Source of the DNA: Parcubacteria group bacterium
Lineage (GTDB): Bacteria; Patescibacteriota; Minisyncoccia; UBA6257; Colwellbacteraceae
Direction of reading: 5' to 3'
Assembly (NCBI GenBank): GCA_041649615.1
Contig: JBAZMT010000001.1
Location: forward strand, 90,981 to 154,980
Length of the DNA: 64,000 nt
The position numbers and the translations under genes are program-made. Within the stretch, counting starts at the first letter, position 1. The number at the start of each line of letters is the position of its first letter. Below, one piece after another: positions 5,984 through 58,578 of the stretch. The notes beneath the pieces are model-generated. The model saw only the letters and a program-made list of their open reading frames with translations. It was not told where the DNA came from and ran no database searches.

Positions 5984-7171
5984 ATGTCTAATTATGCAAG
6001 AAAGGCCGTATTTTTGGCACTTATAGCTGTTTTTATTACCGCGGGAGTTCCTCTCGTCTTCTTTTCGTGCGGATACAGATTCAGCCTGAGTACCTTAAAA
6101 ATCACCAAAAGCGGCGGACTTTACGTGAGAAGCGTTCCGCCAGACGCAAAAATTTACGTGGACAGAAAACCCGTAACAAACAGCTCCAGCATATTGAGTT
6201 CCGGCACTTTGATAAACGGTCTTACTCCGGGGAAATACGAACTTAAAGTGACGAAAGATGGGTATTACGCGTTTTTAGCCGAGGCCGAGATAATCCCCTT
6301 GCAGGCAAGCTCCTTCGGAGGGCTTGTGCTCGCTCCCACCGTTTATAATTCGTATTTAACGGGAGACATTTCCGATTTTTACATTCAGGGAAGCGAAACG
6401 ATCGTTGAAGATTCGGCCGGAAAATTACGCTACAAAAATCAAGTAATTCCGGGAGAACAATTCGGATTTTTCACGGCTGACGGAAAATCGGTTGTCACTT
6501 CGGTTTCAGGGGACGGCGAACGGATATATCTTCTGATTTCGCTTTCAAATCCGAGAGCGTCCACGAACATCAATGAAGTTTTCTGGAGTTTGAAATCCAG
6601 CAAATTGGGCTTTATAGGAGAAGTTCCCGTTCAGGCAATAGCCCCGCATCCCTACGATCCCGATAAATTGCTTGTTAGCACCGCGGCCAGATTATATGCG
6701 GTGGATATAAAAAACATGGCGATAACGATAATGGGCAATGGTGCCGAGAAAATACTGCCGGGAAATCCTTCGGTTATTCTTTTGAGCAATAATTCGCTCA
6801 TAAATTACAATTTAACTCTCAAGACCAGAACGCCCATTATGGGGGTGGAGAATGCTCGAATTATTTCCGTTTCTCCGAACGGCAGAAAAATCGCAACGTT
6901 ATGGGAAAATAAAACGCTTGAGATATACGATGCCACGGACAAGAAATCATTAAGATTCAACCTCTCGGGATTGAATGACATAAAAGACATTTTCTGGCAT
7001 AAAGGGGGAAATTATTTATTTGTTCTCGCCGACAATAACGTTTATTTCGTTTATGCGGAGAAAGAAGGAATAAATCCGCAAATAATATACGAAGGCGCCG
7101 AAAAAGCCGTTTATTCGGATGGCGGACTTTATGTTCTCTCTCAGGGAGAAATTAAGACGTCAAAATTTTAG
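5984..7171 (+). CDS. membrane-anchored PEGA-domain protein with beta-propeller-like C-terminal region
   Basis: 395 aa; N-terminal TM helix; VRSVPPDAKIYVDRKPV...GKYELKVTKDGYYAF resembles PEGA domain. Confidence 0.45.
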   Translation: MSNYARKAVFLALIAVFITAGVPLVFFSCGYRFSLSTLKITKSGGLYVRSVPPDAKIYVDRKPVTNSSSILSSGTLINGLTPGKYELKVTKDGYYAFLAEAEIIPLQASSFGGLVLAPTVYNSYLTGDISDFYIQGSETIVEDSAGKLRYKNQVIPGEQFGFFTADGKSVVTSVSGDGERIYLLISLSNPRASTNINEVFWSLKSSKLGFIGEVPVQAIAPHPYDPDKLLVSTAARLYAVDIKNMAITIMGNGAEKILPGNPSVILLSNNSLINYNLTLKTRTPIMGVENARIISVSPNGRKIATLWENKTLEIYDATDKKSLRFNLSGLNDIKDIFWHKGGNYLFVLADNNVYFVYAEKEGINPQIIYEGAEKAVYSDGGLYVLSQGEIKTSKF

Positions 7172-35041: not shown

Positions 35042-36028
35042 TTATTTTGCCGTTTTACGAGCAGCCCGTTTGGCTTGAAGATCATGCCAAAGGGTTAAAA
35101 GCGGGCTTGCGAAGAAAATGGACGAATAGGTGCCGAAAAACATTCCGATAAGGATGGTAAGGGCAAAATATCTCATGGAAACCGGGCCGAAAATGGACAC
35201 GATGAGAAGGGCGATCATCGCGCCCGTCGCGGTAATCAGGGATCTCGTAAAGACTTCGTTTATGCTTCTGTTTGCCGTTTCGTCAAAATCGGCTTTTCCT
35301 TTCTGTCCGATAAGTTTTTCTCTTATGCGGTCAAAGATGACAATCGTGTCCTGAACGGAAAAACCGGCAATCGTTAAGAGAGCGACAATGAAATAGGTGT
35401 CTATAGGAATGCCTTTAAAGTGGCCGAGCGCGGCAAAAAATCCCGCCGGCACTAGAACGTCGTGAACAAGCGAAGCTAAGGTTACAAGCCCGTATTTGTA
35501 CGATTTAACCGGCCAGGACACTTTTCTGAAAGTAAAAGTGACGTAGAGAGCTATAACCAAAACCACGAGGGCGATAATCCATATCGCTTTGTTCCTCAAT
35601 TCGGAAGAAACGGAAGGTGAAGTGGTCCCGAAATCAAGTTCTCGCGCTTCGGGATATTCGGATAAAAGAGAATTCTTAAAAGCCGCGTGCTCTTCTTCCG
35701 AAATTTCCTTGAATATGAGCGAATACGATTCCGTAGAGGCGTCATAAGAAACAACCGGTTCTTCAATGCCGAGTTTCGTTTCCGCAAATTCGCGAACGGC
35801 GCGTTCATCGGTTCCTGGGATGCTTACCTGCCACATGGTGCCGCTCTTGAAATCAATGCCCGGCGTAAATCCAAAAATTGCAATGGAGGCAATCGACAAA
35901 GTGATGAGGAGCGCGGAAAAACCAATAAACCATTTTCTGTTTCCGATTATGTTTAGTTTCATTTTTTTATGCTTGTTTATTGTTTTGTTTTCCCGGGAAT
36001 ACCCGCAGCAAATTTCTCGTGACAACAT
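35042..36028 (-). CDS. secF: protein-export membrane protein SecF
   Basis: 328 aa; 6-TM SecDF C-terminal half pattern. Confidence 0.8.
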   Translation of the reverse strand: MLSREICCGYSRENKTINKHKKMKLNIIGNRKWFIGFSALLITLSIASIAIFGFTPGIDFKSGTMWQVSIPGTDERAVREFAETKLGIEEPVVSYDASTESYSLIFKEISEEEHAAFKNSLLSEYPEARELDFGTTSPSVSSELRNKAIWIIALVVLVIALYVTFTFRKVSWPVKSYKYGLVTLASLVHDVLVPAGFFAALGHFKGIPIDTYFIVALLTIAGFSVQDTIVIFDRIREKLIGQKGKADFDETANRSINEVFTRSLITATGAMIALLIVSIFGPVSMRYFALTILIGMFFGTYSSIFFASPLLTLWHDLQAKRAARKTAK

Positions 36029-37253
36029 AGGTCATCGCGATGTTTATCAAGATACCGACAAGGAGGGTTAAGGCAAATCCTTTAACGAAGCTTGAGGTAA
36101 AGAAGTAAAGGATAAGAGCGGTTAAAACGGTGCCGACGTTTGAATCTCTGATGGAAGACCAGGCAAGACGGAATCCCGATTCTATCGCCTGCGTGTTTTG
36201 CGTTCCGCGGCGAAGTTCTTCTTTAGCCCGTTCAAAGATAAGGATATTGGCGTCAAGCGCCGCTCCGATAGAGAGAATAAAACCGGTGATGCCCGACAAA
36301 CTCATCGTGAATCCAGGGGTGAGTTTGAAAATGGCAAGAGAAAAAATAACGTAAAGGATAAGGGAAAGGCCGGCGACAATGCCGCGTTTGCGGTAAATGG
36401 CAATGATAAAAGCGATAATCAAAAGAATGCTTATCACGCCGGCGACAAGAATACGTCCCAACGAGTCTTCGGCCGCGGTCGCGTTTACCGTGCGCTGGTT
36501 GCCGAGTTTAATCGGCGCAGAAAGGGCGCCGGCATTGAACCTTTCAACGAGTTTCTGCGCCGAATCAAGAGTTATTCCTTCGCCGGATATTTGCGCTTTG
36601 CCGCCGATTATTTTCTCTTGGACGACCGGCGCGCTTATGGGGGCACCGTCAAGAAAAATGGCTACTTGTTTGCCTATGTTACGCGCCGTAATTTCTTCAA
36701 ACAGTTTCGCGCCTTCATCGTTAAATTCCAAACTTACAACCGGTTGAGATACTCCTTGAGAACTGGTGGCAACGGAAGCGCGTTTGATGTGCCTGCCGGA
36801 GAGTTCGGTCGGGTCGCAAACAATCGAATCTTCCGTAATTACGCAATTTTCCCTGAAATCAAGAAAAGGGGTTTCCCCTATCTCTTTGACAGCATCAGAT
36901 ATTTCACTGATGCCCGCGAGTTCAACAAGAAGCTGTCTCGAGTCTCCCTTCTCAATGACGCGAACTCTCGGTTCCGAAACGCCGTAAAGGTCAATTCTTT
37001 TTTCAATAACGTCTTTTAGTCCGTTAGTAACAGCCGTGAAGTCGGCTCTGTCAACGCCCGTAAGGTCAATGTCATAGGTGAGCGCCGTTCCTCCGACAAG
37101 ATCAAGACCGAGTCTCCAAGGCAAAAATCTGTTTAAGAAAACATCGGGAACTTTGACCCCGGAGACGACAGTTCCCGGTTCGGGCAAAACAAAAAGAGAA
37201 GAAGCGACCGCGAGCAGAACGAGCGCAGAGATAAAAATTAGTTTGTGTTTCAT
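35967..37253 (-). CDS. secD: protein-export membrane protein SecD
   Basis: 428 aa; GLDLVGGTALTY motif, periplasmic domain plus 6 TM. Confidence 0.8.
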   Translation of the reverse strand: MKHKLIFISALVLLAVASSLFVLPEPGTVVSGVKVPDVFLNRFLPWRLGLDLVGGTALTYDIDLTGVDRADFTAVTNGLKDVIEKRIDLYGVSEPRVRVIEKGDSRQLLVELAGISEISDAVKEIGETPFLDFRENCVITEDSIVCDPTELSGRHIKRASVATSSQGVSQPVVSLEFNDEGAKLFEEITARNIGKQVAIFLDGAPISAPVVQEKIIGGKAQISGEGITLDSAQKLVERFNAGALSAPIKLGNQRTVNATAAEDSLGRILVAGVISILLIIAFIIAIYRKRGIVAGLSLILYVIFSLAIFKLTPGFTMSLSGITGFILSIGAALDANILIFERAKEELRRGTQNTQAIESGFRLAWSSIRDSNVGTVLTALILYFFTSSFVKGFALTLLVGILINIAMTYVVTRNLLRVFPGKQNNKQA

Positions 37254-37273: not shown

Positions 37274-37350
37274 TAGTCCGTCCAGCGGTTCTCCCGACCC
37301 TCTTGAACGTTCGAGTCCGGATGGGCGGAATCCTTCGCTTCGCGGAGGAT
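37274..37350 (-). repeat. partial copy (copy 4) of tRNA-adjacent conserved repeat, immediately 3' of tRNA-Lys
   Basis: minus-strand ...UUCCGCCCAUCCGGACUCGAACGUUCAAGAGGGUCGGGAGAACC matches 5' ~45 nt of the core seen at 46221, 57935, 58399; preceded by imperfect inverted copy of tRNA-Lys 3' half. Confidence 0.45.
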
Positions 37351-37425
37351 TGGTCCGCCCAGGAGGACTCGAACCTCCAACTTTCTGCTTAAAAGGCAGC
37401 TACTCTACCATTGAGTTATGGGCGG
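37351..37425 (-). tRNA. tRNA-Lys (anticodon UUU), CCA encoded
   Basis: acceptor CCGCCCA/UGGGCGG, anticodon loop CUUUUAA, T-arm GGAGG-UUCGAGU-CCUCC, 3' ACCA. Confidence 0.85.
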
Positions 37426-45686: not shown

Positions 45687-46016
45687 CTAGTAAATGAAAA
45701 CGATGGTCGCGATTTTCAGTAGAATTATGGCCGGGATGAAGACGGCGAGACTTCCCAAAAGATGAGAAACCATCCTGTCTTTTTTCATGATTCCCGCGGA
45801 GGCGGCGATGTTTATGCCGCAAATGACAAGAGCTACAACAGAGAGACTTAAGAGGGAATGTTTGTCCCCTATCGCTCCCTTAAGGATCAAAAACGCTCCT
45901 TCAGGAACGGCGAAAAGAGCGGAAAGAAAAACGGTAATCAAAATGGCGAGAGAAATTATGCCGTAAACGGCGAAGAGAGGCAGTCTCATTTTGAATTGTA
46001 ATTTTTCTTCGTTCAT
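45687..46016 (-). CDS. small membrane protein, unknown function
   Basis: 109 aa, 3 predicted TM helices. Confidence 0.25.
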   Translation of the reverse strand: MNEEKLQFKMRLPLFAVYGIISLAILITVFLSALFAVPEGAFLILKGAIGDKHSLLSLSVVALVICGINIAASAGIMKKDRMVSHLLGSLAVFIPAIILLKIATIVFIY

Positions 46017-46082
46017 TTAACGGACTAATAATAAATTAAAATAGACAAAATGGAAATTTTATTGTTAAACTCAAGCCGTACA

Positions 46083-46154
46083 GGCCCTATCGTCTAGTGG
46101 TTAGGACGCCAGGTTCTCATCCTGGTAACAGGGGTTCAACTCCCCTTGGGGCTG
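46083..46154 (+). tRNA. tRNA-Glu (anticodon CUC)
   Basis: acceptor GGCCCUA/UGGGGCU (two G:U pairs), anticodon stem CCAGG/CCUGG, loop UUCUCAU, T-arm AGGGG-UUCAACU-CCCCU; no CCA. Confidence 0.8.
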
Positions 46155-46162
46155 CAGTTTAA

Positions 46163-46196
46163 AAGACTATCCTGATGGTTTTTGGATAGTTTTTTA
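46163..46196 (+). terminator. hairpin plus U-run immediately after tRNA-Glu
   Basis: AAGACUAUCC-UGAUGGUUUUU-GGAUAGUUUUUU. Confidence 0.4.
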
Positions 46197-46211
46197 AAAT
46201 TCAGTTTTTGT

Positions 46212-46347
46212 AAGGGGAATTGAACGTTGAGTGGGGTCGGGAGAACGCTTTAAGCGGTCTCCCGTGTAGGAAGATATTAGAAACCGAGGGTTTCTAAAAC
46301 GGAGCGAGCCTAGAGCGAGCGAGTAGTTCAATTCCCCTTGGGGCTGC
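46212..46347 (+). repeat. tRNA-adjacent conserved structured repeat, copy 1 (14-bp perfect terminal inverted repeat; 3' end duplicates tRNA-Glu 3' end)
   Basis: AAGGGGAATTGAAC...core GAACGUUGAGUGGGGUCGGGAGAACGCUUUAAGCGGUCUCCCGUGUAGGAAGAUAUUAGAAACCGAGGGUUUCUAAA...GTTCAATTCCCCTTGGGGCTGC (21/22 identical to tRNA-Glu 3' end). Confidence 0.6.
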
Positions 46348-46376
46348 TATTAAAAAATGAGCGAAAAATCGCTCAT

Positions 46377-46880
46377 TTAGCACGTCATAATCGAGTGATA
46401 ATTATGATCAACCCATGACGCATCGATGCTTTCCAATTCTTCAAGAAGGTTAAATTCCTCTTCACGTCTGAGCCACCTCATAAATTTAATCCACCTGACA
46501 AACCGGAACATTGCTTTTCCATTTCTGTTTGGCTGGAATTTGGCGCAAAGGCCCGTTCCAAAAGTCGTTCCGAAACACAGAGATGAGATGACGGTGCCAC
46601 ATTCACAGGCGAGAGGAAAATAAATCGAGTCCGTTTCATAGATTTTCCCGACGCAAGCGGCCCTTCGCGTTTTCATTTGAAAACCGCTCATATGCCAAGA
46701 AATATTTTCGTGGCCGCGATAAGGCGTGTCATCAACTTTCCCTTCGGCGTTAGGCTTAATCCCCATAAATTCACAGTGCCGAAGAATACAATGTCCATCG
46801 TTTACGCACCACTGACAATACGGAAAATAATGCCCTTCTATAAATTTCTCTTGGGACATTTCGCTTCCGCCTCCTTTCAA
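46377..46880 (-). CDS. Cys/His-rich hypothetical protein
   Basis: YCQWCVNDGHCILRHCEF, CVGK, CECG, LCFG...GLC; no family recognised. Confidence 0.3.
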   Translation of the reverse strand: MKGGGSEMSQEKFIEGHYFPYCQWCVNDGHCILRHCEFMGIKPNAEGKVDDTPYRGHENISWHMSGFQMKTRRAACVGKIYETDSIYFPLACECGTVISSLCFGTTFGTGLCAKFQPNRNGKAMFRFVRWIKFMRWLRREEEFNLLEELESIDASWVDHNYHSIMTC

Positions 46881-57774: not shown

Positions 57775-57851
57775 TCGGAGTTCAATTTAGCTATTTTAGG
57801 CGAATTTTGCAAGATTTAACGTATTTGAGATATTATCGGAAGTGTTAAAGT

Positions 57852-57923
57852 GCCACCTTAGCTCAGCGGCAGAGCAACACTTTTGTAAAGTGTGGGTCCT
57901 CGGTTCAAATCCGAGAGGTGGCT
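57852..57923 (+). tRNA. tRNA-Thr (anticodon UGU)
   Basis: acceptor GCCACCU/AGGUGGC, anticodon loop UUUGUAA, T-arm CUCGG-UUCAAAU-CCGAG, U73. Confidence 0.85.
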
Positions 57924-57925
57924 CA

Positions 57926-58095
57926 CGAGGATTTGAACGTCGAGTGGGGTCGGGAGAACGCTTTAAGCGGTCTCCCGTGTAGGAAGATATTAGAAACCGA
58001 GGGTTTCTAAAGCAAAGCGAATCCGTTTCCGCCAATCGACGGGTAGCGGAAACGGGGGCGGATGAGCGAGCAGTGAAAATCCGAGAGGTGGCTCA
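57926..58095 (+). repeat. tRNA-adjacent conserved structured repeat, copy 2 (3' end duplicates tRNA-Thr 3' end)
   Basis: starts CGAGGAUUUGAAC (revcomp of T-loop GUUCAAAUCC); core 78/80 identical to copy 1; unique 10-bp hairpin CCGUUUCCGC/GCGGAAACGG; ends AAAATCCGAGAGGTGGCTCA (19/20 = tRNA 3' end). Confidence 0.6.
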
Positions 58096-58141
58096 AAATT
58101 CTTGTCATCTTTGCTTAAATACGGCTAAAATGACGAAGCTA

Positions 58142-58213: not shown

Positions 58214-58273
58214 CAAGGAGCGCTTTGCGATGACGAGTTAGTTTGTTTAAAATAGTAGGCGTTCCGACATTAC

Positions 58274-58359
58274 GCACAGGTGGTAGAGCGGTCAATTACA
58301 ACAGACTGTAAATCTGTCGCCTTCGGGCTACGCAGGTTCGAATCCTGCCCTGTGCACCA
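58274..58359 (+). tRNA. tRNA-Tyr (anticodon GUA), long variable arm with UUCG loop, CCA encoded
   Basis: acceptor GCACAGG/CCUGUGC, anticodon loop CUGUAAA, V-arm GCC-UUCG-GGC, T-arm GCAGG-UUCGAAU-CCUGC, ACCA. Confidence 0.85.
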
Positions 58360-58383
58360 TATCCCGCTTGCGGGATATTTTTG
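58360..58383 (+). terminator. Rho-independent terminator directly after tRNA-Tyr
   Basis: UAUCCCG-CUUG-CGGGAUA-UUUUUG. Confidence 0.5.
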
Positions 58384-58390
58384 TTTAGAA

Positions 58391-58525
58391 GAGGATTCGA
58401 ACGTTCAAGGGGGTCGGGGAAATCTTCTAAAGATTTCCCCGTGTAGGAGAATATTAAGAACCGAGGGTTCTTAAAGAGGAGCAAGTGAAGACGAGTGAGC
58501 AGTGAAATTTCTCCCCTGTGCACCA
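58391..58525 (+). repeat. tRNA-adjacent conserved structured repeat, copy 3 (diverged; 3' end duplicates tRNA-Tyr 3' end incl. CCA)
   Basis: starts GAGGAUUCGAAC (revcomp of T-loop GUUCGAAUCC); core ~75% identical to copies 1/2 with compensatory changes in both hairpins; ends CCCCTGTGCACCA. Confidence 0.6.
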
Positions 58526-58532
58526 AGACCTG

Positions 58533-58578
58533 AAGCCCCTCCCCAGTTTTAATAAAAAACTGGGGAGGGGCTTTTTAT
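58533..58578. terminator. strong hairpin terminator after repeat copy 3
   Basis: AAGCCCCTCCCCAG-TTTTAATAAAAAA-CTGGGGAGGGGCTT then TTTTATT. Confidence 0.55.

Follow-up and report, generated by a model that had tools for sequence, protein, structure and literature searches.

Why should a tRNA gene be followed, a short way downstream, by an inverted and then by a direct copy of part of its own 3' end, with a structured segment in between? The question is raised by a 64,000-nucleotide stretch of the genome of a Parcubacteria group bacterium (assembly GCA_041649615.1, contig JBAZMT010000001.1, positions 90,981 to 154,980 of the forward strand), here called the window, in which such a repeat, our copy 1, follows tRNA-Glu(CUC). 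Our answer, which we hold with only slightly more confidence than doubt, is that copy 1 belongs to a family of site-specific, probably RNA-mediated mobile cassettes of Parcubacteria/Patescibacteria, which preserve the gene that they target by duplicating or replacing its end. The cassettes carry no open reading frame (ORF) and are about 110-230 nt long. Three full copies lie in the window, after tRNA-Glu, tRNA-Thr and tRNA-Tyr, together with one truncated copy after tRNA-Lys, and the core pattern gives three matches there against 0.00 expected. Beyond the window more than 230 copies are found, in genomes and metagenomes together, almost all of them in Parcubacteria/Patescibacteria. An inert local duplication, or chance similarity, is practically negligible as an explanation of so many copies in distinct genomes and metagenomes, which carry compensatory changes, against 0 expected by chance.

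An earlier note on this DNA, made from the letters alone, had described the order tRNA-Glu(CUC), hairpin, repeat, and our reading of the sequence, ARAGORN and Rfam all agree with it. The inverted repeat that it had pointed out, AAGGGGAATTGAAC (46212-46225) and GTTCAATTCCCCTT (46326-46339), is indeed a perfect pair of reverse complements (14/14), the 22-nt duplicate of the tRNA-Glu 3' end at 46326-46347 does match 46134-46155 at 21 of 22 positions, and the compact structure that it had foreseen is recovered when the full copy is folded (predicted energy -55.1 kcal/mol, z = -4.4), closed by the 14-bp stem in which the 5' arm pairs with the first 14 nt of the duplicate.

How are the cassettes put together?

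The arm is the part of the element that follows its surroundings. The opening segment of each copy in the window is, in reverse complement, the T-loop and T-stem 3' strand of the tRNA that it follows (GGAATTGAAC for Glu, GGATTTGAAC for Thr, GGATTCGAAC for Tyr and GGACTCGAAC for Lys), and each full copy closes with a second copy of its tRNA's 3' end, CCA included where the tRNA encodes CCA. Because the arm sequence changes with the tRNA, what was taken for a terminal inverted repeat is no fixed end of the element; it is perfect only in copy 1, and family-wide it is the gene-end copy upstream that the arm fits better. The arms found at protein genes have sequences unrelated to those at the tRNAs.

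The general layout can be written P-[X Y]-[A]-[core]-[X' Y']-Q, where P stands for the target-gene body, X Y for the intact end of that gene (from the T-loop of a tRNA onward, or the last 7-30 codons of a protein gene with the stop codon), A for an arm of 10-25 nt, reverse-complementary to the target across the P|X junction, and X' Y' for the second copy of the gene end. We examined 207 elements and used permuted pairs as a control. The arm, taken as its reverse complement, matches its own upstream flank over at least 10 exact nt in 117/207 cases (control 8/207) and its own downstream flank in 23/207 (control 5/207), and 94/207 have a direct repeat of 12 nt or more (control 3/207). The median energy of the arm duplex is -24.4 kcal/mol with the element's own upstream partner against -14.3 in the control (p = 5e-24), and -18.0 against -13.9 kcal/mol with its own downstream partner (p = 2e-12), the upstream sequence being the better partner in 143 of the 207. 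In 86/110 loci the start of the arm complement falls between 7 nt before and 3 nt after the first base of the direct repeat, and so the arm spans the left (P|X) junction; X starts a median of 88 nt (interquartile range 79-98) upstream of the GGGTC of the core. The flanking direct repeats are copies of the gene end and measure 12-85 nt (48-79 nt in the youngest), and 36/66 tRNA-linked copies repeat 11 nt or more of the tRNA 3' end without a mismatch. At one young insertion, L078, it is the first 15 codons of a divergently oriented pth gene that are duplicated, so that the duplication is a property of the DNA target and not of the orientation of the gene.

Does the arm travel with the element, or was it waiting at the target? 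At tRNA genes without a core, an inverted T-loop is almost never present downstream, which means that the arm comes with the element. The alternative, that the arm already exists at empty targets and that the insert is the core alone, we reject as a general rule, since coreless tRNAs rarely have an inverted T-loop and the exceptions are other variants. Copy 3 of the window, at tRNA-Tyr, and locus L108, at tRNA-Val, are identical in the part of the arm next to the core, in the linker and in the core itself, and their distal arms differ according to the target.

In the tRNA-linked copies the junction between tail and X' lies at a few subfamily-specific positions of the T-arm, and the junction sequences are inherited, the rest of X' being target-specific. 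The junction types are ...GACGTGA|, which replaces GTTC, ...GAGCGAC|GTTCGC..., and GGTTCTAG with a small hairpin. We note beside this that the T-loop part of the downstream copies is systematically altered and the acceptor strand kept. GTGA stands at the start of X', where the tRNA has GTTC, at many independent targets (in the window at 58073-58076 and 58502-58505, and elsewhere at L019, L029, L032, L034, L056, L080, L085, L092, L098, L100, L108, L110 and L112), and against the arm's GAAC this produces a tandem G·A / A·G mismatch; in the GTTCGC subfamilies A58 is changed to C, and others have GGTTCTAG plus the small hairpin.

What kind of structure is the core?

Between the arm and the second gene end lies a core of about 80 nt with two hairpins that show strong covariation. 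In an alignment of 78 distinct cores, 98% of the hairpin cells are paired and both-sided (compensatory) changes occur in 10/17 pairs; the covariation score of 0.459 compares with 0.167 in shuffles, was reached by 0/500 of them, and collapses when the partners are slid by one column. There are 12 G·U pairs against 2 A·C, an excess that places the fold on the + strand, which is the strand of the upstream gene. This excess and the invariant joining strands point to a core that folds as + strand RNA (or single-stranded DNA). A tRNA-like RNA on the minus strand, which we also considered, we reject on account of the same excess and the want of an acceptor strand. The order of the core throughout the family is GGGTC, hairpin 1, GUGUAGGA, hairpin 2, a variable hairpin and GAGCGAC, and its invariant segments are GGGTC, GTGTAGG and the CCGAGGG of hairpin 2, an invariance that is partly imposed by the search pattern (GTGGCGRA variants exist). 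Copies 1 and 2 are predicted to form four-way junctions whose closing stem is the pairing of the arm with X'; copy 3 gave no clean closing stem (z = -1.5).

Rfam 15 has no model for the core, and in the window only tRNAs reach gathering scores. A permissive scan (E <= 10) of 46000-46450 likewise found nothing relevant among riboswitches, small ribozymes, introns, tRNA-like RNAs, Y RNA and the omega and HEARO RNAs. The case for a new candidate RNA fold with invariant junction nucleotides is well supported. Side observations on its unpaired strands concern motifs of the Shine-Dalgarno or GGA kind, which are usual family-wide in the linker (RRAGG/AGGAG) and in the stretch after hairpin 2 (AAGGAGC), with GUAGGA always present in the joining strand; copy 1 (46226-46233, 46264-46271 and 46298-46306) has such a motif only in the joining strand and in the CGGAGCG after hairpin 2.

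A fold of this quality raises the possibility of a cis-acting RNA in the service of the host, be it riboswitch-like, thermosensor-like or a stabiliser of 3' ends, in which the arm would toggle between the upstream gene end and the downstream sequence and whose copies would have arisen by ordinary duplication and recombination. The covarying hairpins and invariant junction nucleotides are what such an RNA would have, the arm is able to pair with either X or X', and the core is more conserved than neighbouring coding sequence. Moreover, one subfamily lies immediately before the starts of the Hsp20, NusG, NusB, L20, S18, SecY and FtsX genes; its 3' extension is conserved up to the ATG, and its arm is able to extend over the start region. 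We nevertheless regard this explanation as unlikely, since the targets are dozens of unrelated genes, including 38 tRNA classes, with no gene function in common, since the gene-end duplications, tandem arrays and variable occupancy of orthologues point to insertion, and since copy 3 lies between two terminators with no promoter-like site.

Where do the cassettes sit, and have they moved?

About half of the copies follow tRNA genes and the rest lie at the ends of protein genes. In the examined loci a core lies within 200 nt of 114 tRNA genes, which belong to 38 anticodon classes, and another 150 tRNA genes are without one; most of the carrying anticodon classes also include coreless genes. The earlier note had made presence or absence at orthologous loci one of the points on which mobility would turn, and such variation is there: orthologous tRNA genes are filled in some genomes and empty in others. 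Among the protein targets, recognised by a gene end that is present twice, are genes for a histidine kinase, an elongation factor G (EF-G)-like protein, PolX, ribosomal protein S9, UvrA and a glycosyltransferase. Several of them, with S9 and UvrA among these, recur as targets in different genomes. For PolX the codon affected, within the RRGWAE motif, is the same in 8-9 genomes that diverge widely (their gene bodies are 54-79% identical), and each PolX copy has its own arm matching its own sequence. Tandem or nearby copies are found at L035, L039, L072, L090, L113 and L186, and at L090 a single tRNA-Tyr is followed by two different variants in tandem.

Particularly instructive is one metagenome-assembled genome (MAG; CAYHHX01), in which the central 54 nt are 100% identical at a histidine-kinase gene, at tRNA-Gln and at a third site (L016, L052 and L084), and the arms and tails differ. 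Such identity suggests that the core is subject to concerted evolution or exchange. An identical core of 53-54 nt, of the GGGTCGGGGAAATTGGGTATTTCCCC... type, was also seen in L022, L040, L053, L076, L088, L102-L104, L118 and L124, at different targets and in different assemblies. The consequence for the window is that the likeness of copies 1 and 2, which the earlier note had read as a sign of recent copying, is no proof of recent transposition, concerted evolution of the core being equally possible. The two differences on which that reading was built hold for the first 83 nt of the alignment only; over 92 nt (57929-58020) there are five.

Could the copies then be what is left of larger elements? 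Duplication of a tRNA 3' end, restoration of the tRNA and tandem occupancy are classic features of integrase-mediated insertion, and one could imagine deletion remnants (attL-attR scars, as in cis-mobilizable elements, CIMEs) of integrase islands or prophages, with the core as a conserved att arm. Indeed, the duplication of the tRNA 3' end starts at the T-loop, a copy that the element carries with its own terminator restores the tRNA, and one tRNA can be occupied in tandem by different variants (L090, L080). We think this origin very improbable all the same. A core identical over 54 nt at a histidine-kinase gene, a tRNA gene and a third site of one MAG does not fit it, and neither do the many protein-gene targets; no integrase is linked, the Xer-like genes near five loci lying outside the element; no viral contig has the core; arms differ from target to target; and the covariation of the hairpins is like that of a folded single strand.

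Which of the two gene ends is the original?

A cassette that leaves two copies of a gene end behind poses the question of which one was there before. Between the upstream and downstream copies of 17 protein targets we counted 70 synonymous and 59 non-synonymous codon changes, and in most of the downstream copies the frame is open and the equivalent stop codon present; some downstream copies are frameshifted, as in L022, in L208 and in S9 of L105 and L036. Between genomes, the ratio of synonymous to non-synonymous changes is 60:61 downstream and 58:84 upstream, so that the downstream copy is at least as constrained. Its divergence also tracks that of the gene body somewhat better (Spearman 0.47, p = 0.04, against 0.25 upstream), a weak signal in a test of small samples. 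Because the frameshifted downstream copies, the constraint and the tracking of the gene body fit together, we favour a displaced native end and an imported replacement: tentatively, the downstream copy would be the resident gene end, displaced fairly recently and now decaying, and the contiguous upstream copy would have travelled with the element from a diverged orthologue. Integrative elements, and homing cassettes that bring a replacement gene end, follow the same logic.

How might such an element travel?

The scheme that we would propose has a cassette that is mobile, site-directed and non-autonomous, with an arm that would serve as a guide, or at least as a pairing partner, and align the element with its target. 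Insertion would put a working gene end upstream, and the resident end would be displaced or duplicated downstream. Since a complete gene end stands upstream of the core, the target gene would stay intact, and regeneration of the target site would explain the tandem arrays; an arm complementary to the T-loop would let tRNA-type copies move among tRNA genes. The intermediate would probably be RNA, or at any rate single-stranded, produced by read-through from a strongly expressed target gene, and the activity acting in trans might be supplied by recombination or repair in the host, by an unlinked reverse transcriptase, or by the core as its own catalyst. In its boldest form this would be a new kind of guide-bearing mobile RNA without a protein gene, in which a four-way-junction core of about 100 nt and an arm of 10-25 nt, pairing across a site near the end of a highly expressed gene, would insert by its own catalysis or by an unlinked host activity, would carry or regenerate a working gene end, leaving the host unharmed and the site open to a further insertion, and would be retargeted by re-templating of the arm. 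That fuller proposal we think doubtful as a whole, though worth stating.

Is the arm an inherited guide, or a product of the insertion? Two observations favour the former: in L019 and L092 the arm is imperfect despite near-perfect repeats, and copy 3 and L108 have the core-proximal part of the arm in common. The long degenerate palindrome that X-Y-A forms in copy 1, L105, L036 and L092 favours the latter, a fold-back copy. For L019 and L092 a pure snap-back origin of the arm, which we also considered, is not supported by this combination of an imperfect arm with a nearly perfect direct repeat.

A rather different idea is that we are looking at an intron-like or trans-splicing-like ribozyme, in which the arm would be an internal guide aligning the end of P with the start of X', so that X-Y-A-core would be removed, or the 3' end exchanged, in RNA, with spread by reverse splicing and reverse transcription. 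Group I introns have a P1/P10 guide, which the junction-spanning arm resembles, and the arm complement does lie across the P|X junction in most of the loci where its start could be compared with that of the direct repeat. The open downstream gene ends, whose divergence between genomes looks like purifying selection, would suit a spliced product; in tRNA copies, a normal T-arm would be regained if P were joined to X' behind the recurrent GTGA; and the predicted four-way junction has invariant single-stranded nucleotides. On balance we consider it quite unlikely. Splicing is not needed, because the upstream gene or tRNA is always intact, and downstream copies are frameshifted or degenerate in L022, in L208, in S9 of L105 and L036, and in the T-stem part of copy 3. 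To our knowledge, self-splicing RNAs are all far larger than about 100 nt; the Rfam intron and ribozyme models have no match; and no splicing model explains the fresh insertion at L078, where the duplicated segment is the 5' end of an opposite-strand gene.

Several observations weigh against our preferred reading, that of a mobile cassette, and we set them out here together. Insertion was not seen directly, since a search through the neighbouring proteins, RecR and the product of the downstream ORF, gave no empty/filled pair from close strains. The RecR search led to one 1.6-kb contig, L129 (Logan SRR8542065_466842), which encodes the same RecR protein and ends inside tRNA-Glu, at about window position 46111; the assembly may have broken there, just before the repeat, because of the duplicated tRNA end or of the element. 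For the ORF downstream of copy 1 no public record was found. The native gene-end copy is weakly resolved, and open frames in both copies could mean that both are functional. The core is 71-92% identical across distant genomes whose neighbouring coding sequence is 54-79% identical, which would also fit an RNA that benefits the host, and the 5'-leader subfamily with fixed ends resembles a cis-regulatory RNA more than a mobile cassette. The arm could be a fold-back by-product of insertion, X-Y-A forming a long degenerate palindrome in copy 1, in the S9 copy of L105, in L036 and in L092 (that of copy 1 was aligned by hand), and in copy 1 the arm fits the downstream copy (14/14) better than the tRNA (13/14), the opposite of the family trend. 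Finally, no recurrent mobile-element ORF (transposase, integrase or reverse transcriptase) was found within 2.5-3 kb of 244 elements, a search of neighbourhoods and not of whole genomes; clustering of the ORFs around these elements returned only recurrent housekeeping targets, and the Xer-like recombinase genes near five loci all lie outside the repeats.

Does the element belong to a known class?

The earlier note had likened copy 1 to a miniature inverted-repeat transposable element (MITE), and part of the likeness holds, since the cassettes are repeated and compact, sit at tRNA 3' ends, vary in presence and form tandem copies. The rest does not. The terminal inverted repeats of MITEs are fixed, common to all copies and derived from a parent insertion sequence (IS), and here only the interior is shared and the arms derive from the local target; their target-site duplication is short and fixed (2-10 bp), against gene-end copies of 12-85 nt; and a related autonomous element with a transposase, which a MITE would have, is absent within 2.5-3 kb of the 244 copies. 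Correia elements (CREE), RUP, ERIC, REP/BIME-REPIN and MITEs resemble the cassettes in being short, ORF-less and multi-copy, with transcripts able to form hairpins, a place in or near genes and variable occupancy, and the covarying multi-hairpin interior sets the present core apart from them.

With integrative islands, prophages and CIMEs at tRNA genes the element has in common a tRNA 3' end that it carries itself, a downstream direct repeat from the T-loop, and accretion in tandem; the flanking of an insert by the tRNA 3' end, by which CIMEs are recognised, is seen in copy 1 at 21/22 positions. The integrase and the single attachment site of CIMEs have no counterpart here, as no copy contains an integrase, the length is about 150 nt, identical cores occur at tRNA and protein genes, and the arm is complementary to the target. 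A parallel in outcome is offered by the free-standing homing-endonuclease cassettes of Allomyces atp6 and of glomeromycotan mitochondria, which carry a replacement C-terminal gene segment: there, too, insertion is near the 3' end of a gene, a diverged functional replacement end faces a decaying downstream duplicate, and the same site is used across lineages. The cargo of our element is a structured core of about 100 nt with an arm, in place of an endonuclease gene, and tRNA genes are major targets.

What of the systems that use a guide? Group I and II introns (with their internal guide and exon-binding sequences), the bridge RNAs of IS110 and the omega RNAs of IS200/IS605 resemble the cassettes in placing a target-complementary, junction-spanning segment beside a structured RNA, and differ in that here no Rfam model matches, there is no protein, the duplication is 12-85 nt and the core is far smaller than a self-splicing intron. 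A group I or II intron has a core of at least 200-400 nt, with P3-P9 or domains I-VI, inside an interrupted gene, and we find about 80-130 nt, three hairpins and an intact upstream gene; as to guide pairing, the arm complement lies across P|X at 86 of 110 loci. The palindrome-associated elements of IS200/IS605 and the guide RNAs of TnpB/IscB are set apart by the long duplications, by an arm that is the reverse complement of the flank and not equal to it, and by the lack of such ORFs and of any omega-RNA match in our loci. A retron non-coding RNA also has a closing stem and several hairpins, and none of the 244 copies adjoins a reverse transcriptase. A diversity-generating retroelement is rejected: the changes are not specific to adenine (they fall mostly at third codon positions and involve all base types), no reverse transcriptase is nearby, and tRNA ends would be implausible variable regions. 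The integron attC site and the attP hairpin of CTX-phi share with the cassettes an inverted repeat that folds into a duplex mimicking the target, a regenerated site and tandem arrays, a likeness of geometry only, for they depend on IntI or XerCD and a fixed site, and here the mimicked site differs with each target and no recombinase is linked. To a self-cleaving ribozyme of a new class any resemblance would be indirect, and would lie in the modelled compact junction, its invariant unpaired nucleotides and the many copies in varied contexts.

In short, the element lacks defining features of MITEs, CIMEs, introns, diversity-generating retroelements, IS200/IS605 elements and retrons, and conservatively it is a small, non-autonomous, site-specific insertion element in the broad sense. 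If our reading is right, small structured elements of one large family have settled in the streamlined genomes of the candidate phyla radiation (about 0.6-1 Mb) and are tolerated there. They occupy the ends of essential genes, among them tRNAs of at least 38 anticodon classes, S9, PolX and UvrA, and these genes survive; and with a target-complementary arm and no linked enzyme, how an element of about 150 nt chooses and enters its site becomes a concrete puzzle. There is a practical side as well: the partial tRNA and gene duplicates left by these repeats can mislead annotation, and the conserved core may serve as portable homology for recombination between species.

What does the window itself contain?

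The window is an ordinary Parcubacteria-like chromosomal stretch, whose genes are of the housekeeping kind (a ribosomal-protein operon, EF-Tu/EF-G, DnaB, RecR and MreB); its 64 kb contain no gene of a mobile element. The features of the four copies are collected in the table.

Features of the four copies in the window (positions count from the first letter of the window)
Feature	Position	Strand	Basis
tRNA-Glu(CUC), target gene of copy 1	46083-46155	+	ARAGORN; Rfam tRNA, 61.1 bits
Copy 1, X: upstream copy of the duplicated segment, tRNA-Glu T-loop to 3' end	46134-46155	+	direct repeat with 46326-46356
Copy 1, Y: spacer with hairpin and T-run	46156-46211	+	sequence reading
Copy 1, 5' arm A, AAGGGGAATTGAAC: reverse complement of tRNA T-loop and T-stem 3' strand	46212-46225	+	
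Copy 1, conserved core, opening with a purine-rich linker	46226-46306	+	covariance model R1, 70.1 bits, E = 2e-17
Core of copy 1: GGGTC	46234-46238	+	
Core of copy 1: hairpin 1	46239-46263	+	
Core of copy 1: joining strand, GTGTAGGAAGATA	46264-46276	+	
Core of copy 1: hairpin 2 with GAG loop, followed by the start of the GAGCGA-rich tail	46277-46297	+	
Copy 1, 3' tail, AAACGGAGCGAGCCTAGAGCGAGCGAGTA: variable, ends in family motif GAGCGA(C/G)	46298-46325	+	tails of 51 tRNA-linked copies
Copy 1, X': second copy of tRNA-Glu 3' end, GTTCAATTCCCCTTGGGGCTGC	46326-46347	+	21/22 against 46134-46155
Hairpin ATGAGCG/CGCTCAT and T's, 3' of X'	46357-46378	+	sequence reading
tRNA-Thr(UGU), target gene of copy 2	57852-57924		
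Copy 2, directly 3' of tRNA-Thr(UGU)	57929-58095	+	covariance model, 69.6 bits; fold z = -3.7
Copy 2, arm, GGATTTGAAC	57929-57938	+	
Copy 2, core	57939-58019	+	
Copy 2, extra variable hairpin	about 58021-58063	+	
Copy 2, tail ending GCAGTGA		+	
Copy 2, X', AAATCCGAGAGGTGGCTCA	58077-58095	+	
tRNA-Tyr, target gene of copy 3	58274-58359		
Terminator of tRNA-Tyr	58359-58378		
Copy 3, after tRNA-Tyr and its terminator	58392-58525	+	covariance model, 78.3 bits
Copy 3, arm, AGGATTCGAAC	58392-58402	+	
Copy 3, core, followed by the tail	58403-58483	+	
Copy 3, degenerate X'	58502-58513	+	
Copy 3, perfect CCCTGTGCACCA	58514-58525	+	
tRNA-Lys, target gene of copy 4	37351-37425	-	
Copy 4, truncated, 32 nt after tRNA-Lys	37288-37318	-	inverted-repeat matches and sequence

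A promoter-like site (46042-46071) stands before tRNA-Glu(CUC). The hairpin in Y has the arms ACTATCC/GGATAGT (46166-46191) and extends with its T-run to 46196; the terminator scan did not call it (46166-46196), its G-C pairs being too few. From its sequence, the hairpin downstream of X' is probably the original terminator of tRNA-Glu. In the cluster Thr(UGU)-Thr(GGU)-Tyr there is one promoter-like site for each tRNA (57807-57836, 58102-58131 and 58225-58253), and copy 2 occupies the gap between tRNA-Thr(UGU) and the next of these sites. As no terminator comes before it, copy 2 is probably co-transcribed with this tRNA. Copy 3, which is 72% identical to copy 1 with differences that are compensatory in both hairpins, has terminators on both sides, a strong one (58532-58574) lying downstream, and no promoter-like site. 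What is left of copy 4, namely the arm GGACTCGAAC, its linker and the first half of hairpin 1, runs directly into the start region of the ORF that comes next (35967-37253, minus strand), and to judge by its sequence copy 4 looks like a relic shortened by deletion.

How widespread is the family, and how varied?

A scan of species-representative genomes gave 115 loci, all in Patescibacteria MAGs but one, L024 (Streptomyces), which is a chance match of short GC-rich parts of the pattern in high-GC coding DNA and was excluded; at least 120 further loci came from a metagenome scan. Copies are found in the Staskawicz-, Nealson-, Wolfe-, Colwell-, Lipton-, Azam- and Wildermuthbacteria and in the Paceibacteria. 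The long core pattern gives no match in viral contigs, and the 13 matches there to a short pattern (L001-L013) are chance matches in GC-rich coding DNA. We found no description of the element in the searchable literature, and the family is apparently undescribed, judged by Rfam 15 and the literature searched. The group I introns reported at position 35/36 of Patescibacteria tRNAs are unrelated to it (bioRxiv 10.1101/2025.07.03.662931).

Two kinds of variant deserve mention. The fixed-end subfamily (L015, L017, L027, L041, L042, L060, L061, L066, L074, L087, L089, L113 and L114) has the 5' end CCCAYATCGGAGAG and the 3' end GCGAC-TAACTCTCTAGTACCACT, which stops immediately before an ATG; most of its members adjoin the start codons of the genes already listed from Hsp20 to FtsX, and L015 precedes a tRNA gene. 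Its arm can pair with CTCTC and the AUG region, and the subfamily may represent a domesticated leader or translational switch. In the second kind the same layout, with an arm that is the reverse complement of the T-loop, a structured interior and a copy of the tRNA 3' end, recurs around different interiors, as at L077 (tRNA-Arg-CCG, about 6520-6690), L080 (tRNA-Thr-GGU, tandem), L097 (tRNA-Arg-UCG) and L039 (tRNA-Val-GAC). Two of these inserts have GAGCGACGGCGAA(A/T)AAT in common, and the architecture may be that of a superfamily broader than the core that we have modelled.

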